NCBI GenBank assembly: GCA_034434635.1
Contig: DAOTYX010000079.1
Span: 16,212 to 80,211 of the forward strand
Source of the DNA: Anaerolineae bacterium
GTDB lineage: Bacteria; Chloroflexota; Anaerolineae; B4-G1; DUEL01
Length of the DNA: 64,000 bases
Reading direction: 5' to 3'
The notes under the pieces were generated by a model. It was given only the letters and a program-made list of their open reading frames with translations. It had not been told where the DNA came from and made no database searches. This document shows positions 8,374-52,102 of the stretch, piece by piece. Made by a program: the position numbers and the translations under genes. The stretch's first letter is position 1; every line of letters begins with the position of its first letter.

Positions 8374-10572
8374 CTAGCCGTTGCGCAGCACCAGCGGCAG
8401 GTAGAGATAAGGCAGTTCGTCTGCCCCCACGTCGGGGGCCGCGCCCATCGGGCGCGGGTCTCCATCCATGTCCCACGCCACCCAGACCAGGGGGGTGGCA
8501 TGATTGATAGCGTTGGAGCCAAGGGTCAGGTGGTAATCCGCCGCCAGCCCTGCTGGTCCGGGCACTTCGTTTGTGCTGGTAACCCCCACCCCATAGTTGG
8601 CCCCGTTGCCCTCGAAGAGCGTGTGGTCAGCAGTGACCGTGCTGCCCCCCGGCGAGGCATTGACGATGCCCGTCGTCTGGCTGACGATGATGGTGTTGGT
8701 CAGCCACACCGTGCTCGATGCGCCGACGTAGACCCCCACGCCGTCGCCAAACCGGTTTTCGGCGATAGTGTTGTGCGCCACGCGGCCATTGACACCGCCG
8801 CTGCCAGCGATCGCCACCCCGCTGCCCTGCGCGCTGGTCGCGGCAGTTGTGGTGATCCCATTGCGGGCGACGATGTTGTTGGTCAGGGTGAAGATGTCGC
8901 TTGCCGTCAGATCTACGCCTCCACCCACACCACCGCTCGTGCCGATAGCCCGGTTATCCAGGATGATGTTGCCCTCCAGCCAGGGGTTGCTGCCTCCGAT
9001 TGAGAAACCGCCGCCATATCCCCATTCCGCGCCTCCGTCGCCGGTGGTGTTGCTCAGGACCTGGTTCCCAACGAACCGGGGGGCGCCGGCCCAGACATAA
9101 ACGCCGCCGCCCACTCCGCGCGCGTTGGTCCCGCAGGCGGCTTCATTGCGGGCGATCAGGTTGTCCTGGACAAGGGCGTTGCTGTTGTGGAGCGCCATCC
9201 CGCCGCCGTAAGCCCATTCGCCGGGCGCCCAGACAACCGTATCGTTTTCAGCGATGACATTGTCCCGGAGTACCCCGCTCCCGCCGCTGACGTAGATGCC
9301 GCCACCCTCAGCAGGGGCGCCGGAGGAAGCGGTGTTACGGACTATCTGGTTCTCCACCACCGTAGCGTCGCACTCTTCCAGGTAGAGGCCGCCGCCATAG
9401 CCATTGGCAGCGTAACTGGCGCGGTTGCCGTCGGAAATGACGTTGCCGGCCACCAGCGCGGCAGCGGAGAGATGCGAGAGGTACATCCCCCCGCCCAGAC
9501 CCCGCGGGCCGGTAGTGGCGGTGTTGCCATAGACACGATTGTCGCGGATGAGAGCAAGAGGGCCGCCAAAACAGATGCCCCCGCCCCGGTTGTAGAGGCC
9601 CGCGCTGGCCGTCCCCTGCAGCGCGATGTTCCCGTCGAAGAGGTTGCGCTCGATGGTCACCGGCGAGCCGGAGGAGACATAGATGCCGCCGCCGTTGCCC
9701 ATCACGCCCTGACCGGCGACGTTCTGCAGAAAATCGTTGTCGGCGATGAGCGGGCTGCCGCCGACCACCGCGATCCCTCCGCCGTCACCGGCCGAGTGGC
9801 CGGCGCGGTTGGCGCGGATGGTGTTGGAGAGCACCTGCGGCGAGGCGTTCACCAGATAGATGCCGCCCCCCTGCCCCCAGGTGGCGTCGTCGGCGACATT
9901 GTTGGCGATGAGGTTGTCGCTGATGACGGCAGAGGCAGAGACGGTATCCAGGAAGATGCCGCCGCCGCGCCCATAGCCGGTGCAGGCCATCGTTGTGCAG
10001 CCATAGTTAGCGGTGATGATGTTGCTGAGGATGATGGGGGCCGCGTCCTGCACGGCGATGCCGCCGCCGTGGTTGGGCTGATCGGTGGCCCCTCCGGCGT
10101 TGCCGTTGGTGATGGTAAAGCAAAAGATAGTGGGGCTGGCATGGGTGATGCTGATCACCCGCTGGGTCCCATCCCCGCTCAGGACCACGTTCTCCGGCGC
10201 GCAGGGTACGGAAGTGAAGGTCCACCCTCCCCCAAAGGGGTTCGGGTGAGCCGCCCATGCCCCGTCCAGGGTTACGGACCTGGTGATGATGATCGTGCCG
10301 TAGTAGGTCGAAGCGCCGGCGATGTCATCGCGGTCGGCCACGCAGATCCTCTCGCCAGCCGAGGCCCTGCTCAGGGCATACTGGACACTCTTGCACGGGT
10401 CGTTGGGGTTGTCACAGTGATTGGTCGAACTGTTGTTGCCGCCATTGACCACATAGCGGTCGCAGACGGGCGCGGCCTGGCCGGGCTGGCTGGTCAGCGC
10501 CAGCAGGCTCCAGACGAGGAGAGCCAGCCCCAGGGCCAGGCTCAGGACGATCAGCCAGTGTTTCGCCTGCAT
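8374..10572 (-). CDS. Secreted right-handed parallel beta-helix repeat protein (pectate-lyase/NosD-like fold)
   Basis: An N-terminal signal peptide (MQAKHWLIVLSLALGLALLVWSLLA) and numerous periodic GGGIY/GGGG repeats typical of parallel beta-helix repeats. The 999-aa plus-strand ORF 9187..12186 is antisense to this gene and its neighbour. Confidence 0.6.
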   Translation of the reverse strand: MQAKHWLIVLSLALGLALLVWSLLALTSQPGQAAPVCDRYVVNGGNNSSTNHCDNPNDPCKSVQYALSRASAGERICVADRDDIAGASTYYGTIIITRSVTLDGAWAAHPNPFGGGWTFTSVPCAPENVVLSGDGTQRVISITHASPTIFCFTITNGNAGGATDQPNHGGGIAVQDAAPIILSNIITANYGCTTMACTGYGRGGGIFLDTVSASAVISDNLIANNVADDATWGQGGGIYLVNASPQVLSNTIRANRAGHSAGDGGGIAVVGGSPLIADNDFLQNVAGQGVMGNGGGIYVSSGSPVTIERNLFDGNIALQGTASAGLYNRGGGICFGGPLALIRDNRVYGNTATTGPRGLGGGMYLSHLSAAALVAGNVISDGNRASYAANGYGGGLYLEECDATVVENQIVRNTASSGAPAEGGGIYVSGGSGVLRDNVIAENDTVVWAPGEWAYGGGMALHNSNALVQDNLIARNEAACGTNARGVGGGVYVWAGAPRFVGNQVLSNTTGDGGAEWGYGGGFSIGGSNPWLEGNIILDNRAIGTSGGVGGGVDLTASDIFTLTNNIVARNGITTTAATSAQGSGVAIAGSGGVNGRVAHNTIAENRFGDGVGVYVGASSTVWLTNTIIVSQTTGIVNASPGGSTVTADHTLFEGNGANYGVGVTSTNEVPGPAGLAADYHLTLGSNAINHATPLVWVAWDMDGDPRPMGAAPDVGADELPYLYLPLVLRNG

Positions 10573-10635
10573 CTTGCACCTTCTCTCGTGTCTGTCACCT
10601 CTGAGGTGACCGTCACCTGCCCCTCGCGTGCCCGT

Positions 10636-12117
10636 TCAGGGCGCAACCGCGATGGAAGCCCACCTCTGGGCCATCAGATCCAGGGCGAAGACATAGTCAT
10701 AGCCGTCCGGGTAATCAATGACCCGGATCAGCCAGCCGTTCTGGGTGGGCTGCAGCAACAGGCTCACCGCCCACTCCCGGTCGCGCGGCCAGCCCAACCG
10801 GTCGGAGGCCCACAGACCATTCTCACACCAGACCTTGCCGAAGCCACGCACGGGCAACTGGTAGCCGGTCGGCGCGGTCATCGAGGCGCAGTCGGGGTGC
10901 ACCGACGGCTGGCTCTCGTCCCACAGGTCGTTGTAGGAACTGAGCCATCTCCCGTTCTGCGTCGGGTAACCGGACTCGCTCCCGAATCCCAGGGCGTAGA
11001 TTCTCCGGGTGTCCGACCGCCAGATCATGAAGGCTCCCATCCGGGCGTGCGGGTTGGGATTCTCAGGGTTGGTCTCGAATTTCTGGAAGGCCCCGTAGAC
11101 GGAGATGGAGGAAGCGGTGGGACAGCCCGGGTTGACGCCGAAGCCGCTGGCCACGCTCACGACTGGCTCCAGGAAGGGGTCCATGGTGGTACATTCTCCC
11201 GACTCCACCGAGACTTCCTGTCCTTGCGCGTTGTTGTCCTCGTTCGTCTCGGCGATCACGTCATCGGGGTCTATCTTGATGCAGACGAAGTGATGCCAGA
11301 CTTCGTTGATGGTGACCAGGTAGTCCACCGGCAGGGATTGTCCGGGGTTCAGGCTCACCGTGGTTTGATAGAGGGTGTTGAACGTCGAGGGGTAGTAGCA
11401 GGTGGTGTGAGGGGTGGGCAGGCGGTTCTCGATCCGCACGGTTACGTTGGACAGGGCGGTAGAGCCGCTGTTGTGCAGCACGGCACGGACGTGGAACGGC
11501 GTACCTGCGGTGGGGGTGGTCGGGTCGAAGGTGAGGTCGGTGACCCGCAGATCGGGCAAGCCAGCGGGCGGGACGGTCGGCGTGACGGCGACGACGATCT
11601 GGACGTAGACGACCGCGCCGAAGCGGGTGCCATCAGGCCGCTGCAGTTGCCAGTTGCCCTTGTAGGTGCCGGGGGAAGAAGGGGCCGTCAGGTTGACGCT
11701 GACGTCGGTCGTCGCGCCAGGGGCGACGGCTCCCACAGCCACGCCGGTCGGCCCGCCCAATGCGTCGCCGGAAATGAAGACCAGCATCGTCCCCGCCTCC
11801 CAGGCGCAGGTGCCGCTGTTGCGCAACCGCCAGGTCTTGACGAAAGGGGTTCCCGGCGCGAAGGGGGTGTTATCGGGCACGGTCATATCGGCAACAAAGG
11901 CGGCGTTGAAGGCACAGCCGCCAGGACCGTATACATCGGGAGGGGTGGTGCTGGTCGGTTCGGGGGGGGACACCGTTGGCGTGATCCCTCCCACCTCGGG
12001 CGGCATGGTGATGGTGGGCGCAATGGGCGGCGTTTCCGTGGCTGCCGGGCCGCAGGCCAGCGCGGCGGTAACCATCAGGGCCAATCCCACCAAGACGACC
12101 AGACGGGATTTACGCAT
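10636..12117 (-). CDS. Secreted lipoprotein with CARDB-like domain(s)
   Basis: Signal peptide with a lipobox (LAAALAC). A PT-rich linker. PDLRVTDLTFDPTTPTAGTPFHVRAVLHNSGS resembles a CARDB domain. Confidence 0.45.
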   Translation of the reverse strand: MRKSRLVVLVGLALMVTAALACGPAATETPPIAPTITMPPEVGGITPTVSPPEPTSTTPPDVYGPGGCAFNAAFVADMTVPDNTPFAPGTPFVKTWRLRNSGTCAWEAGTMLVFISGDALGGPTGVAVGAVAPGATTDVSVNLTAPSSPGTYKGNWQLQRPDGTRFGAVVYVQIVVAVTPTVPPAGLPDLRVTDLTFDPTTPTAGTPFHVRAVLHNSGSTALSNVTVRIENRLPTPHTTCYYPSTFNTLYQTTVSLNPGQSLPVDYLVTINEVWHHFVCIKIDPDDVIAETNEDNNAQGQEVSVESGECTTMDPFLEPVVSVASGFGVNPGCPTASSISVYGAFQKFETNPENPNPHARMGAFMIWRSDTRRIYALGFGSESGYPTQNGRWLSSYNDLWDESQPSVHPDCASMTAPTGYQLPVRGFGKVWCENGLWASDRLGWPRDREWAVSLLLQPTQNGWLIRVIDYPDGYDYVFALDLMAQRWASIAVAP

Positions 12118-12216
12118 CTCTCACCTCCTGACATCCAGTCAAGAGGACACGGCAGCGGCCTGTGTTACCGATTCAGGTGCGAGTGATGTCGGAAGCGGAA
12201 GAGAACGAAGTGAGGG

Positions 12217-12996
12217 TCAGCGTCCCAGGTAGCGCAGGCTGCGCTCCAGGTCCTCGGTGTGCTCCATCTCCAGGCTGACCAGAGGGGGAGAAGGCAGTTC
12301 GCTCAACAACGGCAGGACAGCGCTGTAGTCAACAGCGCCGCCCTCCACGTCCAACGGCAGATGCTCGTCGTAATGCCCGCGATGGTTGTTGGCGTGAACA
12401 TGGACGACCCAGTTCCCCAGGCGCTTCAGCCAGTCTGGAAACGGCAGCGAGTTCGAATAGAGGTAAACGTGGCCGATATCCAGACAGGCGCGGAGGTGGG
12501 GGGAGTTGACTTCTTCGAGCACGGCGGCGATGATGTCCGGCTCCGGCTCCCACATGTTCTCCAGGGCGATGATCAACCCCAGGCGGCGGGCCTCCTCGGT
12601 CAGTGCGTCCCAGAAAGCCACCTGTTTGCGCGTCCATTCCGGCAGGTAGGAGGGATGTTGGATGAAGGGGAGATAGTTGGCGTGGAAAACGGTGTGGCGA
12701 GCGCCCAACTCCGCAGCGACTCGCAGGCTTGCCCGATAGCGCTCCACCGTCAGGGCCGTGATCCGCGAGTCCGCGCTGGCGCTGTTCATATCGTAGAAAG
12801 CGCCATGCAGGGCGATCTCTCCGGTAAAGCCGCGCAACGCTTCCCGATGGCTTGCCACAAGGGAGCGCCAGTCGCCATCCAGCAGATCGGGGTTGTAGCC
12901 GTAAACCTGGAGCTCGATGCCCGTCTGATATTGAGAAGCGAGAGCGACATGTCGGGAAATGTCTAACTCTCGCGTGGTGATTGCCAGTCGGTTCAT
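12217..12996 (-). CDS. Sugar phosphate isomerase/epimerase (xylose-isomerase-like TIM barrel)
   Basis: 259 aa. The conserved E/H/D metal-ligand pattern (ALENMWEP, DIGHVYL, HVHANN) matches the AP endonuclease 2 / xylose-isomerase-like family. Confidence 0.65.
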   Translation of the reverse strand: MNRLAITTRELDISRHVALASQYQTGIELQVYGYNPDLLDGDWRSLVASHREALRGFTGEIALHGAFYDMNSASADSRITALTVERYRASLRVAAELGARHTVFHANYLPFIQHPSYLPEWTRKQVAFWDALTEEARRLGLIIALENMWEPEPDIIAAVLEEVNSPHLRACLDIGHVYLYSNSLPFPDWLKRLGNWVVHVHANNHRGHYDEHLPLDVEGGAVDYSAVLPLLSELPSPPLVSLEMEHTEDLERSLRYLGR

Positions 12997-13049
12997 GTTG
13001 GTCTCTGGGAGTCATTGTACACCAACTCTGGTCAATGTGCAACTTTCGG

Positions 13050-13078
13050 TTGACAGGGGCGCTCTCCCGGTGTAGAAT
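13050..13078 (+). promoter_or_regulatory. Sigma70-like promoter TTGACA–17 nt–TAGAAT driving a leaderless sortase mRNA
   Basis: TTGACA at 13050..13055 and TAGAAT at 13073..13078. The ATG at 13077 sits inside the -10. The next in-frame ATG at 13089 is 3–4 nt from the predicted TSS. Confidence 0.45.
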
Positions 13079-13088
13079 GGCCCCCGCG

Positions 13089-14063
13089 ATGAAGGACCGT
13101 CGCACGGTTGATGAACTTTCGATAGAGGAACTGGAGGAGATCCTCCGTATCCGCCGGGCGCAGGCGCGGCTGGAACGGCTGCGCCGCCTGAAGGGGTCAA
13201 TGCCGGCGACGGACCCGCTGGCCCCGGAGCCGACAGAACCGTCGCCGCCGCCGTTGCCCGACGAGCACCTGCGCTTCCAGGAAGAGGGAGCGACAGCGGG
13301 CTTTCGCGCCCGGGCGGTGGACGAGGAGCCCGAGCCTCGGCCGGCCCGTCCGCGGCGGCCGATCCGCTGGGACTGGCTGCGGGACAAGAGCCTGCTGATC
13401 CTGGAGATCGCGGCGACGGTCGGGTTGCTGATCGCCCTGCTGGCCACGCTGAGCACGTTGAACGAACTGAACCGGCAGGCCCGGCTGGGACAACAGGGAC
13501 AGTTACCTCAGCCCATCGCCAGCCCGACGGCCACCCCGCTCATCCAGGTGGCCATCCTGCCTGGCGGTCACGTCCCGCCGCAGCCGAACAGCACCCCCGC
13601 GCCGGCGGAGGTCCCGGCTCACCTGCGCGACCTGGTGGCGGCGATCACGCCGTTGCCGGTGCCCACTCCCGGCCCGCAGCAGGCCGTGCGCATCCGCATC
13701 CCGTCCATCGGAGTGGACGCGCCGGTTGTGGAGGGGGATGACTGGGAGAGCCTGCAGCGGGGGGCAGGCCACCACATTGGCTCGGCCAACCCGGGCGAGC
13801 GCGGCAACTGTGTCATCTCGGCGCATAACGACATCTACGGGGAGATCTTCCGTGACCTGCCGGACGTACAGTTGGGGGACGTGATCGAAGTCTACACCGC
13901 CAGCCAGATGTTCCGTTACATCGTCACTCAGCAGCGGATCATCGTGCCTACTGAGGTGAGCGTGATGTATCCGACCAGCACGCCAGTGCTGACACTGATC
14001 TCCTGCTATCCTTACGGGATTGACTCCCATCGCATCGTCGTTATCGCCGAACTGCAACCTTGA
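13089..14063 (+). CDS. Sortase-family transpeptidase (class E-like), membrane-anchored
   Basis: A C-terminal catalytic domain with the TLxTC motif (VLTLISCYP) and a conserved His region. There is an N-terminal cytoplasmic region, one TM helix (LLILEIAATVGLLIALLATL) and a Pro-rich linker. Confidence 0.7.
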   Translation: MKDRRTVDELSIEELEEILRIRRAQARLERLRRLKGSMPATDPLAPEPTEPSPPPLPDEHLRFQEEGATAGFRARAVDEEPEPRPARPRRPIRWDWLRDKSLLILEIAATVGLLIALLATLSTLNELNRQARLGQQGQLPQPIASPTATPLIQVAILPGGHVPPQPNSTPAPAEVPAHLRDLVAAITPLPVPTPGPQQAVRIRIPSIGVDAPVVEGDDWESLQRGAGHHIGSANPGERGNCVISAHNDIYGEIFRDLPDVQLGDVIEVYTASQMFRYIVTQQRIIVPTEVSVMYPTSTPVLTLISCYPYGIDSHRIVVIAELQP

Positions 14064-17693: not shown

Positions 17694-17782
17694 CGCACTG
17701 TTACCTCGCAGACGGTTGCCCCATGGGGCGAAGGCGGATTATACCACAAACTGGCGAACGGGCAACCCGTCTTACGAAGGTA

Positions 17783-17821
17783 ACAGGCACCTCGCAGGTG
17801 CCCGTCATCTGAGGTCACCTG
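17783..17821. repeat. Family D element ACAGGCACCT-cgc-AGGTGCC…TGAGGTCACCTG overlapping the stop codon of the M23 gene
   Basis: ~39 nt closely similar to 27143..27181. It supplies the in-frame TGA (AGG TGA) of the minus-strand gene ending at 17815 and a downstream hairpin. Confidence 0.5.
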
Positions 17822-19515: not shown

Positions 19516-19760
19516 GACGGTGTCTCCTGCGGAGGCCTGAAGGTCGTAGCCCCTGGAGGCCGCAGCCCTTCAAGGCCATAGCCCTTCAACGCCGTAGCCC
19601 CGGCATCCCAATGCCGGGGCGGCAGGGAGTACAATGGCGGTGTCTCACGCGGAGGCCCGAAGGCCGTAGCCCTTCAACGCCGTAGCCCCGGCATCCCAAT
19701 GCCGGGGCGACCGCGGAGGCCTGAAGTGGCAGGTACCTGGAAGGTGCCTGGCACCTTTGG
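19516..19760. repeat. Tandemly duplicated structured region (two ~85–115-nt units, each ending in the family A hairpin GCCCCGGCATCCCAATGCCGGGGC) with an internal 18-mer duplication
   Basis: Unit 1 spans about 19512..19625 and unit 2 about 19626..19710. Both contain tacaatg(a/g)cggtgtctc…gcggaggcc…gtagccc…cttcaacgccgtagcc. Flanking small palindromes are ccagggggggccaggcaccccctgg and ggtgcctggcacc. Confidence 0.6.
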
Positions 19761-22533: not shown

Positions 22534-23583
22534 CTAACCGTGCGAGCGGGCCAGCGGCAGGTAGAGCCTGGCAGAGGGCACCCAGACCTGCGCCGAGTCC
22601 GGGTCCACCATCCACGGCGACACATCTACCGCCTCGAAATCGGCGCCGGTGACCTGGCGCAGTTCGTTGACCAGGGTATCGTTGTCCCATCGCTCGTCCG
22701 GCGCGCCGGAGACGTACCACGGAGCGCCGTTGTCAGCCAGGATCATGCCGTAACGCTGCAGCGCGCGCAGGATCACCTGGACCTCTGGCGAGAAGCCACC
22801 AAGGTCGAAGTCGCGGCGCAGACGGAAGCGCTGGCCCATCGGCGGGTACTGCGCGCCGGTGAGACTGGATGCGTAGTGGCGAGCGGGCCAGACGTAGGCG
22901 CGGCGCGTCTGCGGGGCGGTGAAGCGCAGGGCATGGCGGATCTCGCCGCTGACCACCTCGTCGTAGCGGACCAGTCCCGGCAAGATGGGCAGGCCGGCGG
23001 CATCGGCGGAGGTCCAACCGGCAGGCCGCAGGTTGTTGCTGTTCAGGTCGAACCGCGCCCCGGAGTCGGCCTCCCACGAGCCGTCCGGTTGTGGGTAGGC
23101 GGCGTAAAGTTCATATAGGAGGCAGGTCTCTTCCTGAAGCACCAGCACATGCCGGTCGCCTTCCGCCTGTGGGCCGCCCTCGATGGGCGCGTTGGGTGGG
23201 ATGGGGTAGGGGCCGGGGTCGCTCTCATCGCCGTAGGCGACAAAGGTGACGGTCACCGGTTGTTGGGAGGAGGGGACGATGACGTAAGGGATGCCGATGG
23301 GCGCGCCAGAGCCAGGCGGCCAGTCACCGGAGCCAAAGTCGGGGTGAACGGGCGCGTCGGCCCCGATGGCAGCAATGTAGAGGTCGGATTGGGGGTCCGC
23401 CGGCAGGCCGTCCACACGCATATTCCACACATTGTCGGCGGGGAAGACAGTGCAACCGCCCAGTTCGGGCGGTGACTGGGCATAGGTTGAGGCGGCAGTG
23501 GGAGAAGAGGAAGGCGCGCCGCCGCAGGCCAGGAGGACAAGGAGCGTCACTGCGCTTAGGGCTATGAGCGGGTTGCGTTTCAT
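22534..23583 (-). CDS. Secreted lipoprotein, function unknown
   Basis: The start is taken at MKRNPLIALSAVTLLVLLACGG (lipobox LLAC). No recognised catalytic motifs. The ORF track N-extension is Arg-rich antisense-like sequence. Confidence 0.45.
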   Translation of the reverse strand: MKRNPLIALSAVTLLVLLACGGAPSSSPTAASTYAQSPPELGGCTVFPADNVWNMRVDGLPADPQSDLYIAAIGADAPVHPDFGSGDWPPGSGAPIGIPYVIVPSSQQPVTVTFVAYGDESDPGPYPIPPNAPIEGGPQAEGDRHVLVLQEETCLLYELYAAYPQPDGSWEADSGARFDLNSNNLRPAGWTSADAAGLPILPGLVRYDEVVSGEIRHALRFTAPQTRRAYVWPARHYASSLTGAQYPPMGQRFRLRRDFDLGGFSPEVQVILRALQRYGMILADNGAPWYVSGAPDERWDNDTLVNELRQVTGADFEAVDVSPWMVDPDSAQVWVPSARLYLPLARSHG

Positions 23584-23600
23584 TGCCCCTTCCTGGTCTC

Positions 23601-26243
23601 TCACCCTCCGGCGGCCAGTTGCCCCGGCGTGAAGGTCATCCCGCCGTCGGTGGAATGGGCGATGTAGACATCCCACTCGTCGCCGCGCTGATGCGCCCAG
23701 GCCACGTGGATGCGACCCGCGCCGTCCACAGCGACCGTGGGGGTGTGCAACACGTCTCCATCCGCCTGCGCCACCCCGACCCCGGCGCTGAAGGTGCGCC
23801 CGCCGTCGTCGGAGCGGTAGAACCACACCCAACTCCCATCGCGCGGGCTGTAGGTGGTGAGGGCCACATAGATGGTGGTGCCGTCAGCGGTCAGGCTAAC
23901 CTCGGTCGGGCGGACGGAGACGTACCGATAGCCCTCACCCACCTGCCGCGGGTCGGTGAAGGTCGCCCCGCCGTCGGCGGAGAGGGCGTAGACGGGCAGA
24001 TAGAGGAGCGCGTTGTAGGTGGGGTGGCGAATATAGGCGTTGCTCCAGGCCAGATGGACGTGACCGCGAGGCCCCATCGCCAGGGCAGGGAGTTCGTCGC
24101 TCAGGTCAGCCACCAGGCCGCTGCCCACGACCCGGTCTGCGCCAAAGCCGCCCCCTGCGTCGACGGCGTATCGGATGGCCCAGGCGCCCGAGCGGTCGTC
24201 GGCCCAGGCCACGTGGACGCGGCCCTGCCCATCCACGCCGATGACCGGGTCTACCTGCTGGCCGCCGGCGGGGTCGTTGACGCGCACGTTGACGCCGAAA
24301 GAGGCGCAACCGTCGGATGAACGGGCCGTGTAGATGTCCCAATCCCCGTCGCGACGGTCCTGCCAGGCCAGGACGACCAGGCCGTCCCGCCCGGCGGCCA
24401 GCGCCGGGTGGCCCTGCTCTGCACTGCCGATGTCGACACTGACGAGTACAGCGGGCGCGAAGGTGAGCCCATCGTCGGAACGGGCGCAGAAGATGTCCCC
24501 GCTGCCGTAGCGCCAGTCCTCCCAGGCGATGTAGACGCGGCCGTCGGGAGCCACGGCCAGCGCAGGGTAGCCGCGCCCGGGGGTGGGCGCCTGAGGGTTC
24601 ACCGCCGCCAGCGGGGTGAAGGTAAGGCCGCCGTCAGTCGAGCGGGCGGCGTGGACCTCCCATGAGCCGCTGCTTGTGTCGGCCCAGGCCAGGTAGAGGG
24701 CGGCAGGGCCGGCGGCCAGCACGGGGTGCGGGGCGGTGTGCACCGGGACGGCAGCGGAGGAGGCAGGAGTAGAGGTCGGGATAAGAGGGGTCTCCTCCGT
24801 CAAGAAGCCGACCGCGATGAAGGAGTTGCGCCCACGGTCGTTCAGGCAGACCGTGCCGCCGCTGGGCAGGCTCACTTCGAGGAAGAGGACGTCGCCAGGT
24901 CGGCCGTCCAGGGCAGGACCACGGGCGATGCCGTTGTCCTCCCCCTCGCGGCCCTGCCACTCCGCCAGCAACCTCTCCTGACCGTCACGCAGGCGCAGCA
25001 GCAGGCGCACGTTGTACCGTCCGCGGATACCGGGAAGAGAATAACTGTACGTGTCGCCGTCCAGGGGATGGGTCAGCGTGAACGCCCAGGTCTGGACGCA
25101 CTGCCAGGTGCATTCCATGTAGGAACTGGTGTTTGCTGGCGGCGGCTCCACGGTGAGCACCCCCTCTTCACCCAGATAGAACCGCTGGACGGAGGAGACC
25201 TCTGGGATGACAGCGGGCACGGTGGGGGCGGTGGTGGGGGAGACGACAGGCGTGCCCGAAAGGCGGTTGTAAAGGGAGATCAGCACGCTGCCGCCCAGCA
25301 GCAACGCTGCCAGCAGGCACGCCACGGCCAGAAGGGCCAGCAGCGCGTAGCCCCAGGCCGGGAGACGGCGAGTGGGTGCGCGGCGGGGAACCGGGCGGGT
25401 GGCCGCCTCACCTGCCGTCTCTGCCACCTCCACCGCGGCCAGCGCCTGGGCCAGTTCCCCGGCTGTCTGGTAGCGGTCCTCCGGCCGCTTGGCCAGCGCC
25501 TTGAGGATGATCCTTTCGACGCTCTCCGGCATAGCGGGGTTGAGGATGCGCGGCAGGGGCAGTGGGTCGTGGATGTGCTTGACCAACACGGCCATCGGCG
25601 TCTCAGCCAGGAAGGGGGGGCGGCCGGTCAGCATCTCGTAGAGGATCACGCCCAGCGAGTAGACATCGCTCCGCCCGTCCAGAGGCTGGCCCAGGGCCTG
25701 CTCCGGCGAGGCGTAGGCAGGCGTGCCAAGAAAGTCGCCGGTGGCGGTGATGTGACTGGTCCCCTCCAGCATCTTGGCGATGCCGAAATCGCTCAACAGA
25801 CAGTTGCCCTGCTCGTCCATCAGCACGTTGCTGGGCTTCACGTCGCGGTGGACGACCGAGCGGGAGTGGGCATAATCCAGCGCGGCGGCGAGTTGGGAGA
25901 GGATGCGGCGGGCTTCCGGGAGCGGGAGAGGCCGGCCCTTCAGGCGATCGGCCAGGGTGCCGCCCTCGACGTAGCGCATCACCAGGTAGGTGTAGCCATC
26001 GGCCTCGCCGTAGTCGTACACCGGAAGGATGTGGGGGTGCTCCAGGCTGGCGATGACCCGCGCCTCCTGCGCGAAGCGCCGGGCGAAGCCGGGCTCGGCG
26101 GCGTAGTGGCGCGGCAGGATCTTGAGGGCGACGATGCGGTCCATGCTGGGCTGGAAGGCCTTGTAGACCGCAGCCATCCCGCCCTCGCCAAGCGGAGCGA
26201 TGACCCGATACGGACCCAGTTGCCGACCGCTGAGATCTTCCAT
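23601..26243 (-). CDS. Ser/Thr protein kinase with extracellular BNR/Asp-box repeat (sialidase-like beta-propeller) sensor domain
   Basis: Kinase subdomains (GEGGMAAVYKA, HRDVKPSNVLMD, DFGIAK), one TM helix (LPAWGYALLALLAVACLLAALLLGG), then repeated SxDxGxTF/W Asp-boxes (STDGGLTFT, SDDGLTFA, SADGGATFT, SDDGGRTFS, STDGGMTFT). Confidence 0.8.
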   Translation of the reverse strand: MEDLSGRQLGPYRVIAPLGEGGMAAVYKAFQPSMDRIVALKILPRHYAAEPGFARRFAQEARVIASLEHPHILPVYDYGEADGYTYLVMRYVEGGTLADRLKGRPLPLPEARRILSQLAAALDYAHSRSVVHRDVKPSNVLMDEQGNCLLSDFGIAKMLEGTSHITATGDFLGTPAYASPEQALGQPLDGRSDVYSLGVILYEMLTGRPPFLAETPMAVLVKHIHDPLPLPRILNPAMPESVERIILKALAKRPEDRYQTAGELAQALAAVEVAETAGEAATRPVPRRAPTRRLPAWGYALLALLAVACLLAALLLGGSVLISLYNRLSGTPVVSPTTAPTVPAVIPEVSSVQRFYLGEEGVLTVEPPPANTSSYMECTWQCVQTWAFTLTHPLDGDTYSYSLPGIRGRYNVRLLLRLRDGQERLLAEWQGREGEDNGIARGPALDGRPGDVLFLEVSLPSGGTVCLNDRGRNSFIAVGFLTEETPLIPTSTPASSAAVPVHTAPHPVLAAGPAALYLAWADTSSGSWEVHAARSTDGGLTFTPLAAVNPQAPTPGRGYPALAVAPDGRVYIAWEDWRYGSGDIFCARSDDGLTFAPAVLVSVDIGSAEQGHPALAAGRDGLVVLAWQDRRDGDWDIYTARSSDGCASFGVNVRVNDPAGGQQVDPVIGVDGQGRVHVAWADDRSGAWAIRYAVDAGGGFGADRVVGSGLVADLSDELPALAMGPRGHVHLAWSNAYIRHPTYNALLYLPVYALSADGGATFTDPRQVGEGYRYVSVRPTEVSLTADGTTIYVALTTYSPRDGSWVWFYRSDDGGRTFSAGVGVAQADGDVLHTPTVAVDGAGRIHVAWAHQRGDEWDVYIAHSTDGGMTFTPGQLAAGG

Positions 26244-26278: not shown

Positions 26279-27097
26279 CTAGGCTACCTGCCGGCCGGGG
26301 ATTGGCGGGCCGCCGGCATAGACAGCGGTGACCGCCAGCGCCCCCACAGGCGCACCGAGCCGCCGCTGGCTGCCCAGCCAGCGACCGTGGACCTGGAAGG
26401 AGACCGCGCCGAAGGTGAGCAGCGACGCGGCCACGGGCGTGTCGGCGGCCAGCCCCTGGAGCGCCTCGGCGGCCAGTCCCTGCGCACAGACCATCGCCTG
26501 CGCCCCCGCCGGCTGTAGCGAAAGCAGCGGCACCACGACGGGGTAGCCCTCATCGTCCAGGAAGGCCAGCACCCGCACCGCCGAGAGCGGCGAGAAGTGC
26601 TGACGCACCACCGGCGGCATCGTCACAGCATCTGCCGGCAGCGCGGACGGACGGGCGACCAGCCGCGCCAGCAGGTAGTCCCCCAGCACACGCAGCTTCG
26701 AGAGGCGGAAGTGGCGCTGCACTCCCCGCACCTCGATGATGCCCGCGTTGCGGATGCCGGTGTAGGCGTTGTAGCGCAGCAGGTCGGTGTTCATGATCGC
26801 TTCGACATACGGCCCTGTCCGCTGCCACCCTGCGAAGTTCCCCTGCAGCGTCCACCCCTCCAACGCCGTGGTGATGACCAGGATGCCCACGCGCGGGTCG
26901 GCCTCCAGGTTGCCCACGGACTTGCGCAGCAGGAAGTTGCCGAAGATGAGGCGATCCTCCATATCCCCGGCGGGCATGATAGATGTCACGGGCACGACGT
27001 TGGGGACGCCTTCGGCGGAGCGGGTGGCCAGGAACTTGGGGGTCATCCCGTCGCCCAGCGCCTTCAGCAGGCCAGGGTGAGGCGTCATATGGGACAT
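26279..27097 (-). CDS. Pyridoxamine 5'-phosphate oxidase-like (split-barrel FMN-binding) family protein
   Basis: The start is at MSHMTP with a GGAGGT RBS. The N-terminal segment (TRSAEGVPNVVPVTSI) resembles PPOX-class split-barrel proteins. There are two tandem domains. Confidence 0.45.
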   Translation of the reverse strand: MSHMTPHPGLLKALGDGMTPKFLATRSAEGVPNVVPVTSIMPAGDMEDRLIFGNFLLRKSVGNLEADPRVGILVITTALEGWTLQGNFAGWQRTGPYVEAIMNTDLLRYNAYTGIRNAGIIEVRGVQRHFRLSKLRVLGDYLLARLVARPSALPADAVTMPPVVRQHFSPLSAVRVLAFLDDEGYPVVVPLLSLQPAGAQAMVCAQGLAAEALQGLAADTPVAASLLTFGAVSFQVHGRWLGSQRRLGAPVGALAVTAVYAGGPPIPGRQVA

Positions 27098-27142
27098 CGT
27101 GAACCTCCGTTTGTCGGGCGGTGCCAGGTGAGTTACCAGGTG

Positions 27143-27181
27143 ACAGGCACCTATCAGGTGCCTGCCACCTGACGTCACCTG
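27143..27181. repeat. Family D element ACAGGCACCT-atc-AGGTGCCTG…TGACGTCACCTG overlapping the stop codon of the thioredoxin-like gene
   Basis: Closely similar to 17783..17821. It provides the AGG TGA stop of the gene ending at 27175 and a 9-bp-stem hairpin. Confidence 0.5.
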
Positions 27182-27687
27182 AGCAGGCGTTGAATCTCCT
27201 GGCGCAGGTGCTCTTCCGTACCTGTGCCGTAGCCGATGTCACTCATCAGGATCGTGCCGTCAGCGGCGATCAGGTAGAGGGTGGGCGTGCCGCCGACGCG
27301 GTAGGCACTGGAGGCCCTGCCGTTCTCGTCCAGGACGGTCAGCAGAGAAACCTCGGCATCGTCCAGCGCCCGGTGCGCATCATCGGCGGAACCCATGCAG
27401 ATGGTGATCAGCACCAGATGCTCATCAGCGAACTCCTCTTCCAGGGCTGCCAGGACCGGCAGCTCTTCCAGGCAGGGAGGTCAAGAGGGACTCCAGAAGT
27501 CGAGCAGGACAGGACGCCCGGCGTAGTTGGAGAGGGAGATGTCGGCCCCTTCCAGGCTGGTGAGGGTGAAATCCGGCGCGACGGTGCCGTTCTCCAGCGG
27601 CCCGACCCCAAACAGCGAGAGCAGGCAGCAGGAAGAGAGGGTCGCCAGCGTCAGCAAGATGACAGAGATGTGGCTCTTCACCGGCAT
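27175..27687 (-). CDS. TlpA/ResA-like thiol:disulfide oxidoreductase with an in-frame TGA at the first Cys of the CxxC motif (candidate selenoprotein, UPPC)
   Basis: Signal peptide/TM, then APDFTLTSLEGADISLSNYAGRPVLLDFWSPS-[TGA 27483..27481]-PPCLEELPVLAALEEEFADEHLVL…GGTPTLYLIAADGTIL. This is collinear with TlpA (…VLLNFWASWCPPCR…). An AGGAGA RBS is present. The ATG overlaps the stop of the upstream peptidase gene. A hairpin GCUGCC-GGUCCU-GGCAGC starts 17 nt 3' of the UGA. Confidence 0.5.
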
Positions 27688-29015
27688 TCTCCTGTGGTCA
27701 GGCTCGTCTCGTGCGCCCAACCTCCGCTCCGCGAACAGCGGAGCCGGATGACCAGGCCGAGCGTCATGAGTCCCGCCGCACCGGCGCAGGGCAGGCAGGG
27801 AAGCGCGGGGGCGGGGGATGGCGCAAGTGGTGCGCTGGTGGGCCGTGGAGGGACGGTGGGGCGCTGGTCGGGCGGGCGTGGTGTGGCGCCGGTAGCGTTG
27901 GGGATGGGGGTGGGATAGGTGCCGGCTTTCTGGCCCAGCCATTCCCACCAGGCCTGTTGGAACTCCTCGAAGTTCAGGCCGGTCGCCTCCAGCAGGGCCT
28001 CGTCGGTGTTGCTGCCGGCGCGGAAGGCGGCCAGCAGGCGGCTCATCCCCTCGCTGCCCCAACGCTCGAACAGGAAAGTCACCGCGCTCAGGCTTTCCGC
28101 GTAGAGCAGGGCGACGCGCTCCTCATCGCCGGAGAAACTGCCGGTGGCCAGGCGCAAGGGAATCAACTCGCCGCTTCGGGCAGCCTCCTCCACGCGCCGC
28201 AGGGCGGCATCTGGGGGAAAGAACTCGAAATACTGGGCGAGACCCTCGTTCAACCAGGTGGGTGGGTAAGTGCTGAAGGCGTCACCGTGCACGACCTGGT
28301 AGAAGTAGAGGTGGGCGATCTCGTGCGGAATCACCCCGCGCAGGTACCATGGGTTGAGGGTCGCCTCCTGCGGCGGGATGATCTGCACGGTCAGCCCCAT
28401 CTCCGTGAATGCCTGCCCTCCCACCCATTCCTGCACGTACTGATGCCATGAGGCGAAGTCCTCGGCGTTACCGTACACGACCACCACGATCTGGTTGGGC
28501 AGAGACGTGCCTGTTGTTTCCTCCATCGTCTTGATGGCACGGTCGGCCCAGTTGAAGACTTCCTGGCCGAAGGTCGCGTCCCCGTCGTACCACCAGATCG
28601 CCAGATCCCCGTTCTCCAGAGTCTGCCAGTCGAAGCGGGAGTCCACGACGGTGAACTCCTCCGCCTCGCTGGTGAGCGCATGGCCAGCGTCGTCGCGGAT
28701 GGTCCAGGTATAGTGGACGCGGGCGCCAGGCGGGATGCCCCGCCGGCGCGGCGCCCAGTCCGCCTGGGCGGTCACCTGAGGGCCTGGCGTGAACTCGGCC
28801 ACCAGGACCTCGGTCGAGGAGTCGCCGCGGATACCGATGTTGAGCGTCACGCTGCTGATGTCCCCCTGAGCGGTGCTGGCCTCGACCTGGAAGGTGATAT
28901 TTTCCGGGTAACTGTTGGTCACTGTCGTTGCGCCGATGGTGATCGGGTTCTCGGCCTGCAGCGGGGGGGCCAGGAGGGAAAGGAGAAGCAGCACCGTCGG
29001 CCAGTGCGGGTTCAC
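27678..29015 (-). CDS. Secreted zinc metallopeptidase, Peptidase_MA-like (HExxH…NEGxAxY)
   Basis: A signal peptide follows the GTG start (VNPHWPTVLLLLSLLAPPLQA). The motifs are HEIAHLYFYQ and WLNEGLAQYFE. A PT-rich linker leads to a C-terminal hydrophobic segment plus basic tail. The GTG start overlaps the TGA of the radical SAM gene (GTGA). Confidence 0.55.
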   Translation of the reverse strand: MNPHWPTVLLLLSLLAPPLQAENPITIGATTVTNSYPENITFQVEASTAQGDISSVTLNIGIRGDSSTEVLVAEFTPGPQVTAQADWAPRRRGIPPGARVHYTWTIRDDAGHALTSEAEEFTVVDSRFDWQTLENGDLAIWWYDGDATFGQEVFNWADRAIKTMEETTGTSLPNQIVVVVYGNAEDFASWHQYVQEWVGGQAFTEMGLTVQIIPPQEATLNPWYLRGVIPHEIAHLYFYQVVHGDAFSTYPPTWLNEGLAQYFEFFPPDAALRRVEEAARSGELIPLRLATGSFSGDEERVALLYAESLSAVTFLFERWGSEGMSRLLAAFRAGSNTDEALLEATGLNFEEFQQAWWEWLGQKAGTYPTPIPNATGATPRPPDQRPTVPPRPTSAPLAPSPAPALPCLPCAGAAGLMTLGLVIRLRCSRSGGWAHETSLTTGECR

Positions 29016-29983
29016 CGACACCCCCCCTGCGCCGCTTCGGGCCGCTCCCCGGCGTCGGCCTCGATGCGCGTCGCGCCCGACCACACTGCCACAGGGACGC
29101 GTTGGATGGCGACGCCGTGCAGCGTTTCCATCTCAGCGCGGGTCAGCAATGGTGTGCCCTCCAGGGCGTACTGGCGGTCAAGGCGGTGGTACTTGGGCTG
29201 GCCCAGGTTGGTGTAGGCCAGCAGGTCCCACCGTTGGACAGTGGGGAGGTTGGCGGCGATGAAGTCGCCCAGGGCGGCGATGTTGTCCGCGTCGGCGGTG
29301 TAGCCGGGGATGACGGGGGTGCGGATCCACATCGGCAGCCCGGCGGCGGCGATGCGGCGGGCGTTCTCCAGGATAGCGCGGTTATCCATACCCGTGGCAG
29401 CGCGGTGACGGCCCGCGTCGAACAGTTTGAGGTCATAGAGCACCAGGTCCACCCACGGCAGTACCTGTTCCATCCGCTCCCAGGGGACGGCGCCGCATGT
29501 GTCGAGGGCGACGTGGATGCCGGCGGCGCGGCAGAGGCGGGCCAGCGCCAGGACGAAGTCGGCCTGGGCCAGCGGCTCGCCGCCGGAGAACGTCACCCCG
29601 CCGCCGGAGGTCTCGTAGAAGACCGTGTCTTTCTGGATTTCGGCGCAGAGCGCTTCCGGTGTCCACTCCCGGCCGATGACCTCCAGCGCTCCGGCTGGGC
29701 AGGCGCTGGCGCAGTCGCCGCAGGCGGTGCAGCGGGCGCGGTCGATGCGCATCCCCTGCGGGGTCAGTTCCAGCGCGCCAACCGGGCAGGCGCGCAGGCA
29801 GTCGCGCGCGGCGATGCAGCGCAGGTCATACCAGACCAGTTCCGGGCGCGGGGAGAGCCCTTCGGGGTTGTGACACCAGGCGCAACGGAGGGGGCAGCCC
29901 TTGAAGAAGACGGTGGTGCGGATGCCGGGGCCGTCCTCGGTGCTGAAACGCTGCAGGTTGAAAGTCGTGCCGATCATGCTCAT
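29012..29983 (-). CDS. Radical SAM enzyme, glycyl-radical-enzyme activating protein family (PflA-like with ferredoxin-type insert)
   Basis: GCPLRCAWCHNPE (CxxxCxxC). Two additional Cys clusters (CIAARDCLRACP, CTACGDCASACP) typical of long GRE activases. A C-terminal TIM-barrel portion. A GGGGAGAG RBS precedes ATG 29983. Confidence 0.7.
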   Translation of the reverse strand: MSMIGTTFNLQRFSTEDGPGIRTTVFFKGCPLRCAWCHNPEGLSPRPELVWYDLRCIAARDCLRACPVGALELTPQGMRIDRARCTACGDCASACPAGALEVIGREWTPEALCAEIQKDTVFYETSGGGVTFSGGEPLAQADFVLALARLCRAAGIHVALDTCGAVPWERMEQVLPWVDLVLYDLKLFDAGRHRAATGMDNRAILENARRIAAAGLPMWIRTPVIPGYTADADNIAALGDFIAANLPTVQRWDLLAYTNLGQPKYHRLDRQYALEGTPLLTRAEMETLHGVAIQRVPVAVWSGATRIEADAGERPEAAQGGCR

Positions 29984-30188: not shown

Positions 30189-30216
30189 TTTGACAAAGCC
30201 GATGGGGTGAGTACAA
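30189..30216 (+). promoter_or_regulatory. Sigma70-like promoter TTGACA–16 nt–TACAAT for the first amino-acid ABC operon, followed by a ~143-nt leader
   Basis: TTGACA at 30189..30194 and TACAAT at 30211..30216. Confidence 0.5.
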
Positions 30217-30366
30217 TAAAACTCATGCTGCCCAAGAGGCTGCGGAACGATCCTCCCTCTGTTGCAAGGACAGGAAAGGAGGTGATTCACCCCTGGCGAA
30301 GAAAGACGTATCCCCCTGAGAAGTGTCTGCCGTTTCTTTGCAAGCATAAAGTGAGGAGATAAGAAG

Positions 30367-50569: not shown

Positions 50570-52102
50570 TCAATCCGCCGATGGATTCCCCTGCATGCGA
50601 CGCTCTGCGCCGCGAACAGCACGCAACGGGACAGCCACCTCATGCGCCAGCGCCCGAAAATGGCCCCAGGCCGCCCATTCCGACGGCAGGGCGCGCAGGT
50701 CAGCGGCTACCTGTCCCAGCGCCTCCGGCTCCACCCAGCGGAAACCGGAGATGCGCTCGTCGCTATCGTTGACCGCTGGCTCGCCCGCCACGTCGCCCCG
50801 CACCAGCCAGGAATGGAAGAAGAAGCGAGAGCGACCGTAGCACAGGGTATAGGTCAGCAGGCCCAGCGGCTCTGGCCGACCGACCACAAGTCCCGTCTCC
50901 TCTTCGGCCTCCCGCGCGGCAGCGGCCAGCACGTCCTCGCCCTGGCGGATGCCGCCGCTGGGCAGGCGATAGACGCCGGGCGGGTAGAAGCGTTTGGTGT
51001 GCAGCAGCAGTTGACCATCCGGGCGGCGCAGGAAGAGCACCACCTCGCCCATGCGCCCCGACTGCGCCGCGCGGGCGGTGGCGTCAAGCAGGCGCGGGTC
51101 AGCCGCCAGGCGATGGTGGCGGTGAGGAAGCGGACCATAGCGCGCCTCCAACGCCGCGCGTTGGTTCTCGACAGCCACTGCCGCCGTTGCCGGGCGGCGG
51201 GTGGGGAGCCACAGGGCGAACAGGCTCAGGGCGAGCGCCGCTGTCGCCAGCAGGCCCCCCTCCGGGCCGAACGCGCCGCCGGTCAGCAGCGGAGGGCCGC
51301 TCGTGCCCAGAGCCAGCAAACCGGCCCAGTCCGTGCCACTCACCGGGAAGCCCAGCAGCGGCCCCTGCGCCAGGTTCCAGGCGAAATGGTAACCCACCGC
51401 CATCCATAGCGTGCCGGTCCGCTCAACCACTACAGCGAAGAGGACGCCGGCCAGGAAGATGTTGAACATCGCCAGGAGGTTGAAGTTGGGGTTCAGCGTA
51501 TGTACCAGGGCAAAGAGGAACGAGGAAGAGAGGACCGCTGCCCAGGGGCCGCGCCAACCGCCCACCGCGCGCAGCACGTAGCCGCGGAAAGTCACCTCCT
51601 CCGCTGCTGCCAGCGGAAGCATGGCCAGGGCGTACAGGAGGAAAGTTGCCGCGCCACCCGTCCCTCGTTCCCAGGCGCTCCACCCGCAGACCAGCGTCAC
51701 GCCGGCGATGAGCAGCATAGCCCCCAGGCCGAGGGCGAAGCCCAGCGCCCCATCCCGTCCGGCGCGCTGACCGGCCAGGCCCATCGTCGCCGCCGGCTCA
51801 CGGTCGAGCAGGCGACCGAACAGCAAGGCAAACCCCAACGCGACGGTCAGGCGGGACAGTCCCGTCGCCAGCATGAGCAGCGGCGGCATCTGGCCACTCA
51901 GGCGGGTGACCACGGCCTCAAGGGGGAGACGGGCCACCAGCAGCAGCACAGCGGCGTAGGCCAGGCTCAGCAGGAGGTCGAGCAGCAGGCTCGTCCCCAG
52001 CACGACAACGAGGTAGGCCGCTGTGCGCCAGGCGGGATGGAGGCGGTCGCCGCGCAGGAAAAACCGTGCTACCGCGGCACGTCCAGTGACTCGATGCCCC
52101 AC
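50570..52102 (-). CDS. CPBP-family intramembrane metalloprotease (CAAX protease-like) fused to a C-terminal NUDIX hydrolase domain
   Basis: The N-terminal half has multiple TM helices with CPBP motifs EExxxR (AAEEVTFRGY), FxxxH (FALVHTLN) and HxxxN (YHFAWNLAQ). The C-terminal half has a Nudix box GGIRQGEDVLAAAAREAEEETGL. Confidence 0.6.
   Translation of the reverse strand: MGHRVTGRAAVARFFLRGDRLHPAWRTAAYLVVVLGTSLLLDLLLSLAYAAVLLLVARLPLEAVVTRLSGQMPPLLMLATGLSRLTVALGFALLFGRLLDREPAATMGLAGQRAGRDGALGFALGLGAMLLIAGVTLVCGWSAWERGTGGAATFLLYALAMLPLAAAEEVTFRGYVLRAVGGWRGPWAAVLSSSFLFALVHTLNPNFNLLAMFNIFLAGVLFAVVVERTGTLWMAVGYHFAWNLAQGPLLGFPVSGTDWAGLLALGTSGPPLLTGGAFGPEGGLLATAALALSLFALWLPTRRPATAAVAVENQRAALEARYGPLPHRHHRLAADPRLLDATARAAQSGRMGEVVLFLRRPDGQLLLHTKRFYPPGVYRLPSGGIRQGEDVLAAAAREAEEETGLVVGRPEPLGLLTYTLCYGRSRFFFHSWLVRGDVAGEPAVNDSDERISGFRWVEPEALGQVAADLRALPSEWAAWGHFRALAHEVAVPLRAVRGAERRMQGNPSAD

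Follow-up and report, generated by a model that had tools for sequence, protein, structure and literature searches.

A probable mosaic operon of a glycyl radical enzyme activase, an exported zinc peptidase and a thioredoxin-like protein with predicted selenocysteine in an Anaerolineae bacterium

The window analyzed here is a 64,000-nt stretch of contig DAOTYX010000079.1 from an Anaerolineae bacterium, and gene coordinates are given as window positions. Three consecutive open reading frames (ORFs), read on the minus strand as an operon, span positions 29983-27175. They encode a radical S-adenosylmethionine (SAM) protein of the glycyl radical enzyme (GRE) activase type, an exported zinc peptidase, and a thioredoxin-like oxidoreductase with one in-frame TGA codon. 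We propose that the locus is probably a lineage-specific mosaic operon of an ordinary activase, a surface peptidase, and a selenocysteine-containing oxidoreductase, and not a dedicated three-part system. The three-gene operon itself holds little new biology, each of its parts belonging to a known kind. The analysis corrects the annotation of a predicted selenoprotein that appears in all public records found as two separate "hypothetical" pieces, and it offers local gene rearrangement as an account of a seemingly orphan GRE activase. A better lead is the conserved trio of a GRE, its activase, and a PNPOx-like protein, in which the GRE lacks a match to a function-specific model.

Co-occurrence of the three genes

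All three genes are found together only in the near-identical contigs L032, L033, L035, and L036. Gene neighborhoods were compared in a metagenome scan comprising 80 activase loci, 26 of them with ≥60% activase identity to the window, and in a peptidase synteny set of 29 genome loci containing relatives of the window peptidase. Neither the peptidase nor the thioredoxin occurs at any of the 80 metagenome activase loci, and an activase is missing from 28 of the 29 genome loci of the peptidase set. The original prediction had viewed the operon as a possible uncharacterized redox or maturation module. This view is not borne out by the counts, and activase orthologs with 64-84% identity to the window protein directly adjoin a GRE in related organisms, which is in essence what the original prediction had named as its refutation. 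The gene identities that it had assigned agree with the evidence presented below, namely a radical SAM enzyme with the two-cluster insert of GRE activases, a secreted Peptidase_MA-like metalloprotease, and a selenocysteine-containing thioredoxin, as does the absence of a GRE gene nearby.

The sole peptidase genome locus with an activase is L001, where the gene order is C69 peptidase, activase, peptidase, GRE, DUF6206, and PNPOx-like. The activase and peptidase genes overlap by 4 nt both in L001 and in the window, with the two peptidases only ~46-51% identical. The retained overlap is a possible hint of something beyond chance adjacency and counts against a mosaic origin. Together with the tight GTGA coupling of the window genes and an activase that is intact though no GRE is encoded in 64 kb, it speaks for a true functional module. 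Either the peptidase or the thioredoxin would then be modified prior to export by the activase-like enzyme, possibly aided by the PNPOx-like protein, or the three proteins would share one redox or maturation pathway. We regard such a module as very unlikely in view of the neighborhood counts. The GRE of L001 directly follows the peptidase, so the activase has its normal substrate there. Neither exported protein contains a glycyl-radical motif according to a motif scan, and both have Sec-type N-terminal signals. Moreover, the activase has decayed beside an intact peptidase at L039 (7705-9285). There, ~75 amino acids (aa) of the activase N-terminus remain, with 86% identity to the window activase, and are read without a frame break into the peptidase ORF (P0004), at a locus lacking a GRE.

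In 27 further peptidase genome loci, neither partner gene is adjacent to the peptidase gene, and the more distant peptidase relatives stand in unrelated gene contexts. In close relatives, the genes around that of the peptidase encode C69 and M28 peptidases, a deaminase-like amidohydrolase, an FAA hydrolase, and aminotransferases. Two amino-acid ABC transporters are encoded immediately upstream of the operon in the window. Such a neighborhood would fit a role in the scavenging of peptides and amino acids.

The thioredoxin gene has its own distribution. In L043, the end of the peptidase gene, a GTGA junction, the thioredoxin gene with its TGA, and the PNPOx-like gene follow each other in a row, and in L044 the thioredoxin gene precedes the PNPOx-like gene. 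At L042 (867-5972), the thioredoxin gene, with both the TGA and the hairpin behind it retained, lies between ABC-transporter genes and is followed by two genes of B12-binding radical SAM proteins.

The activase and the missing glycyl radical enzyme

The radical SAM gene encodes an ordinary GRE activase, with the enzyme activity predicted from the sequence. The protein scores 337.4 bits in a profile search against TIGR02494 (cut-off 174.35) and has Pfam matches to Radical_SAM and Fer4 (4Fe-4S), the latter at residues 55-101. In GRE activases, the cluster bound by a CX3CX2C motif cleaves SAM reductively, and a hydrogen atom is abstracted from a conserved glycine of the GRE, while a ferredoxin-like insert carries auxiliary clusters. 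The window protein contains the CX3CX2C motif (C30/C34/C37), the GGE SAM motif, and a ferredoxin-like insert with seven cysteines (C56, C62, C66, C85, C88, C91, and C95). The cysteines of both the motif and the insert are invariant across 121 aligned activase sequences. PflA is the closest solved structure. The protein stays under the cut-off of every function-specific equivalog model tested, including those for HypD, CutC, sulfopropanediol dehydratase, and PflA. The best of these is NF043069, for the activase of HypD (hydroxyproline dehydratase), with a score of 316 against a cut-off of 425, and the PFLA model TIGR02493 gives 212.8 against 231.75. The activase is strongly conserved, with thousands of matches, the best 120 of which are 74-100% identical.

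The usual gene order in relatives is GRE, activase, and PNPOx-like. A GRE adjoins the activase at 61 of the 80 metagenome loci and at 16 of the 26 loci with at least 60% activase identity, and the PNPOx-like gene comes next after the activase at 28 of the 80. The GRE-less loci in this set are mostly short contigs. In L037, whose activase is 79% identical to that of the window, the genes run GRE, adenosine-deaminase-like, C69 peptidase, activase, and PNPOx-like. The PNPOx-like protein of the window, encoded after the thioredoxin, is 68% identical to the L037 protein encoded directly after the activase. The peptidase and thioredoxin genes of the window therefore stand exactly between the activase and PNPOx-like genes, which are normally neighbors. 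The 64-kb window contains no GRE detectable by a motif scan or by tblastn with two GREs (E≤0.01), which is a further point against the proposed origin of the operon. A relaxed-threshold tblastn over the window, aimed at remnants of GRE, adenosine-deaminase, or C69 genes around the operon, gave noise only.

We hypothesize that the ancestral arrangement was the trio of GRE, activase, and PNPOx-like genes, and that the gene of a surface peptidase was inserted into the GRE cluster in a step common to L001. The GRE gene would then have been lost from the locus, with the selenocysteine-thioredoxin gene taking its place, so that a two-gene cassette of peptidase and thioredoxin is now situated between the activase and PNPOx-like genes. 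The remnant in L039 would present a picture of later activase decay. The window activase would serve an unlinked GRE elsewhere in the genome or would have been orphaned recently. It shows no excess divergence. The pairwise activase identities are 79% between the window and L037, 78% between L001 and L037, and 79% between the window and L001, with no sign of acceleration.

It is conceivable, if rather doubtful, that the activase is a non-functional relic nearing loss, and that the GRE has disappeared from the whole genome rather than moved. A relic would agree with the lack of a GRE in 64 kb, with the deletion of the activase in the related GRE-less context of L039, and with the P0008 context, in which the peptidase gene has no activase at all. 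However, the window activase is full length, its cluster cysteines and SAM motif are intact, and its divergence equals that between the GRE-linked orthologs. In addition, L047, L050, L054, and L072 contain an activase and PNPOx-like pair with some flanking sequence and no adjacent GRE, which suggests that unlinked GREs are tolerated.

The trio of GRE, activase, and PNPOx-like (272 aa) genes is present at many metagenome loci (L037:5058-11881; L045, L046, L062, L083, and others), down to 44% activase identity, and is spread over many Chloroflexota and other metagenome lineages. The most specific model attained by the GRE of the trio is the subfamily model TIGR01774, the cut-off of which is exceeded in L001 and missed in L037, whereas its scores against all function-specific models stay under their cut-offs. 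A literature search on GRE together with PNPOx returned no paper. The trio may be an uncharacterized GRE system whose accessory protein is of the flavin type. L070, which carries such a trio, shares its JGI sample with the window-type contig L034 but belongs to another organism (GC 0.50, tetranucleotide correlation 0.22), and it is therefore no evidence for a GRE in the window genome.

A thioredoxin with an in-frame TGA

The third protein of the operon matches PF00578 with 73.2 bits (cut-off 26) and PF08534 with 62.4 bits (cut-off 26.6), and its closest solved structures are ResA and DsbE, the top PDB matches. The ResA-subfamily model NF002854 aligns to residues 31-166 with a score of 77.2, short of its cut-off of 170, and the WAxxUGC model gives 44, short of 300. 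The N-terminus of the protein forms a hydrophobic membrane anchor or a lipoprotein-like signal. The ResA motif FWGSWCEPC aligns with FW(S)(P)(S)UPPC of the window protein. The full-length homologs P0217 and P0219 have WCPPC where the window has the TGA.

The TGA is most likely read as selenocysteine, judging by its position and conservation. It occurs at the identical codon in L042, L043, and L044, which come from unrelated samples and are 56-78% identical, and both the reading frame and the thioredoxin-fold homology continue beyond it. Recoding would be local and not the result of a variant genetic code, because TGA is the ordinary stop codon of all three operon genes. UxxC selenoproteins are established as predicted families among Prx-like thiol-disulfide oxidoreductases, TlpA-like isomerases, and members of the Redoxin group (PMC13188914, PMC9312934), and selenoproteins are known in Chloroflexi (PMC1794560).

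The UGA would be recoded by means of a putative bacterial selenocysteine insertion sequence (SECIS). The core of the candidate hairpin is located 17 nt 3' of the UGA and has a 7-bp stem and a GUCC loop. In the window, L042, L043, and L044, the core is identical, including synonymous sites, except for one compensatory change of C-G to U-A in L042. Nucleotide identity has a local peak at the hairpin, whereas the remainder of the 3' half of the thioredoxin gene varies more. Its folding z-score is -1.0, and its energy is unexceptional for this G+C content.

Several observations weigh against the recoding of the TGA. None of selA, selB, selC, and selD (tRNA-Sec) was found in the 64-kb window. Rfam yielded no SECIS family, whether the window was searched at gathering thresholds or the surroundings of the UGA at permissive ones, and the matches returned were noise. 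The support for the hairpin consists of four orthologous sequences and one compensatory pair. The missing machinery and the missing Rfam match, as well as public gene calls that invariably divide the gene into two pieces of 66/68 aa and 73/79 aa, would be expected if the TGA were a true stop in a pseudogene or between two small genes, or a sequencing error. We consider this highly improbable, as the TGA aligns with the catalytic cysteine, is retained at one codon in four orthologs with the frame and homology continuing, and is followed by a hairpin conserved at synonymous sites. Furthermore, the thioredoxin sequence is identical in independent assemblies. The predicted selenoprotein would be membrane-anchored and extracytoplasmic, with selenocysteine as the attacking residue of its U-P-P-C motif.

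The exported peptidase and its C-terminal tail

The second protein of the operon scores 101.1 bits against PF13485 (cut-off 32.4) in a Pfam search. It has 93 homologs, mostly from Chloroflexota/Anaerolineae where the source is named. Residues H231, E232, H235, W254, E257, and G258 are invariant among 29 aligned family members, and N-terminal hydrophobic segments are present throughout the family alignment. The AlphaFold model of the peptidase (pLDDT 83) consists of an N-terminal β-sandwich and a thermolysin-like catalytic domain, and a Foldseek search with this model identified M1 aminopeptidases with a probability of 1.0. The M1 profile PF01433 gives 19.2 and does not reach its threshold of 27.7. 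According to the predicted structure, the peptidase is a small M1-like gluzincin. A GGQAF motif is positioned ~31 residues before HExxH, at the place of the GxMEN (GAMEN) exopeptidase motif of M1. The enzyme is more likely an endopeptidase, because GGQAF replaces the GAMEN of M1 enzymes.

The peptidase ends in a Pro/Thr-rich linker and a tripartite tail. The consensus of the tail in the peptidase family is C-x-G, ~12-15 hydrophobic residues, and then R/K. All cysteines of the peptidase are located in the tail: two in C-L-P-C, a third within the Arg-rich part, and the last at the very C-terminal end. The peptidase would be exported by the Sec route and held at the cell surface by the Pro/Thr stalk and the tail of a Cys motif, a transmembrane segment, and arginines. 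The invariant-Cys C-terminal sorting signals, MYXO-CTERM and its relatives, have a tripartite shape and were described by Haft (bioRxiv 10.1101/2023.06.07.544157; PMC11980579). When C-terminal tails were scanned against NCBIfam, that of the window peptidase matched no sorting domain significantly, and the tail of its relative P0069 scored 19.5 bits against MYXO-CTERM (TIGR03901), with a cut-off of 20. A regular-expression scan of the window and ~120 loci for the tail on unrelated proteins returned peptidase homologs only. The original suggestion that the tail looks like a sorting signal therefore holds for its tripartite shape and its conservation in the family, and fails for a sorting-model match, unrelated clients, and an adjacent sorting enzyme. 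The window encodes a sortase-domain protein and a CPBP (Rce1-like) intramembrane protease domain fused to a NUDIX domain, each at a distance from the peptidase gene. In other phyla, invariant-Cys sorting signals are substrates of CPBP proteases. Two large genes adjoin the sortase gene (region 8374-12120, minus strand), one with N_BRCA1_IG and CARDB domains and the other with no Pfam match, and neither has an obvious LPXTG-type tail.

It could be argued that the peptidase and the thioredoxin form a functional pair, in which the TlpA-like selenoprotein keeps the CxxC of the tail reduced for its processing or lipidation as an invariant-Cys sorting signal. Both the window and L043 have the two genes joined by a GTGA overlap, with the PNPOx-like gene next to them, and the confinement of the peptidase cysteines to a tail built like the signals of Haft, the near-threshold score of P0069, and the CPBP gene in the window would all suit a pair. 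However, the closest other peptidase homologs (54-58% identity) have no thioredoxin gene downstream, and L042 has the thioredoxin gene in an unrelated context. In addition, the tail is restricted to peptidase homologs, without unrelated clients, and that of the window protein matches no sorting-domain model. We therefore find a functional pair unlikely. There is a slim chance that either the tail is a new invariant-Cys sorting signal of Chloroflexota, with the TlpA-like selenoprotein as a dedicated reductase for its lipidation or cleavage, or the activase and the PNPOx-like protein have a GRE-independent role. Within the mosaic operon that we favor, the two exported proteins, as predicted from their signals, probably work outside the cell membrane and independently of the activase.

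Gene coupling, transcript signals, and flanking genes

At 29015..29012, the radical SAM gene ends with the TGA of the sequence GTGA, and the peptidase gene begins with its GTG. The second junction contains ATGCCGGTGA at 27687..27678, which includes the peptidase stop TGA at 27680..27678. The thioredoxin gene most likely starts at GTG 27681, because the ortholog in L043 has ACG in place of the ATG of ATGCCGGTGA and is called from GTG, and because public calls on the sequence of the window itself start the gene (its 66-aa fragment) at GTG. The second junction is then most likely another 4-nt GTGA overlap. The three overlapping minus-strand genes noticed originally are confirmed in this way, and so is the overlap at the second junction, though not its assumed length of 10 nt. 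The radical SAM gene may start at ATG 29977 rather than at 29983. Versions of the protein with 321 and 323 aa are both among public calls, and an exact look-up matched the 321-aa form and gave no match for the 323-aa form. Public calls over 21 kb of this region include three 4-nt overlaps, one of 1 nt, and one of 14 nt. The overlaps between the three genes speak for an operon and are frequent locally, hence nothing out of the ordinary. The GTGA overlaps would couple the translation of adjoining genes, as in many operons.

A strong palindromic hairpin directly follows the thioredoxin stop codon and is conserved in L043. It is a probable 3' end or stabilizer of the transcript. The hairpin belongs to an intergenic palindrome family, CAGGTG-N-CAGGCACCT ... 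AGGTGCCTG-N-CACCTG, which is matched 12 times in the window (1.7 expected). The family looks like repetitive extragenic palindromic (REP) elements, or like terminators without a T-run. A promoter and terminator scan identified no minus-strand sigma-70-type promoter for the operon and no intrinsic T-run terminator within it. The hairpin after the thioredoxin gene has no T-run, and hence was not called by the scan. The sole promoter-like site, at 30190-30217 on the plus strand, faces a divergent ABC-transporter gene.

The window also contains a minus-strand gene of a Ser/Thr kinase with an ectodomain of BNR/sialidase-like repeats (23601-26243), followed by a gene of 349 aa without a Pfam match (22534-23832, minus strand; its stop-to-stop ORF has 449 codons). 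In L037, a kinase gene likewise comes after the PNPOx-like gene, with one gene intervening, and this part of the neighborhood is conserved.

Table 1 Positions of genes and sequence features in the 64,000-nt window
Feature	Position	Strand	Description
Radical SAM GRE activase	29012..29983	-	323 aa; alternative start ATG 29977 gives 321 aa
Exported Peptidase_MA_2 zinc peptidase	27678..29015	-	445 aa, GTG start
Predicted signal peptide of peptidase	28953..29015	-	MNPHWPTVLLLLSLLAPPLQA / ENP; read from sequence
Predicted zinc site of peptidase	28245..28325	-	H231-E232-x-x-H235 ... E257 (HEIAH ... NEGLAQY); family alignment
Pro/Thr-rich linker (~residues 371-403) and tripartite tail of peptidase	27681..27905	-	ALPCLPCAG, hydrophobic segment, RLRCSR, 17-aa extension
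TlpA/ResA-like thiol-disulfide oxidoreductase with predicted selenocysteine	27175..27687	-	~168-170 aa, one in-frame TGA
In-frame UGA at first Cys of CxxC	27483..27481	-	FWSPS-TGA-PPC; redox motif U-P-P-C
Putative bacterial SECIS	27435..27479	-	core hairpin 27463..27446, GCUGCCG-GUCC-UGGCAGC
Palindromic hairpin directly after thioredoxin stop	27137..27171	-	-51.6 kcal/mol, z = -6.7
Copies of palindrome family	27137-27171, 17777-17811, 19723-19757, 10603-10619		in the window
PNPOx-like protein	26279..27097	-	272 aa; PF01243 36.6 bits
Sortase-domain gene	12981-14063	+	14 kb from peptidase
CPBP (Rce1-like) intramembrane protease-NUDIX fusion	50570-52105	-	22 kb from peptidase

Comparison with known systems

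The window activase has the CX3CX2C motif, the Cys-rich ferredoxin-like insert, and the GGE motif in common with the activases of the TIGR02494 family, such as those of HypD, CutC, and HPD. Its insert has seven conserved cysteines, whereas the ferredoxin-like insert of GRE activases usually has eight (PMC13450708). The orthologs of the window activase adjoin a GRE, which the window protein does not within 64 kb.

The peptidase has a β-sandwich and a thermolysin-like domain in common with the M1 aminopeptidases, which are clan MA gluzincins and include aminopeptidase N, LTA4 hydrolase, and tricorn factor F3. The HExxH motif with a glutamate 22 residues further on is a feature of the M1 family as well. 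The peptidase is about half the size of M1 enzymes and lacks their C-terminal helical domain. Unlike them, it has GGQAF instead of GxMEN and bears an anchor tail at its C-terminus in addition to a signal peptide. The tail resembles the invariant-Cys sorting signals (MYXO-CTERM and relatives) and LPXTG in its Cys/Gly motif, hydrophobic segment, Arg cluster, and preceding Pro/Thr linker. It differs from these in that the window protein matches no sorting model, the tail is restricted to one peptidase family, and no sorting enzyme adjoins the gene.

The thioredoxin differs from the known UxxC selenoproteins in its S-U-P-P-C motif and in having no selenoprotein annotation in the public records found, and it comes from a Chloroflexota (Anaerolineae-like) lineage with ~66% G+C. 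Like the Prx-like, TlpA-like, and Redoxin members of the UxxC group, it combines the AhpC-TSA/Redoxin fold with a predicted selenocysteine in place of the first cysteine of CxxC, a putative extracytoplasmic anchor, and a hairpin after the UGA.

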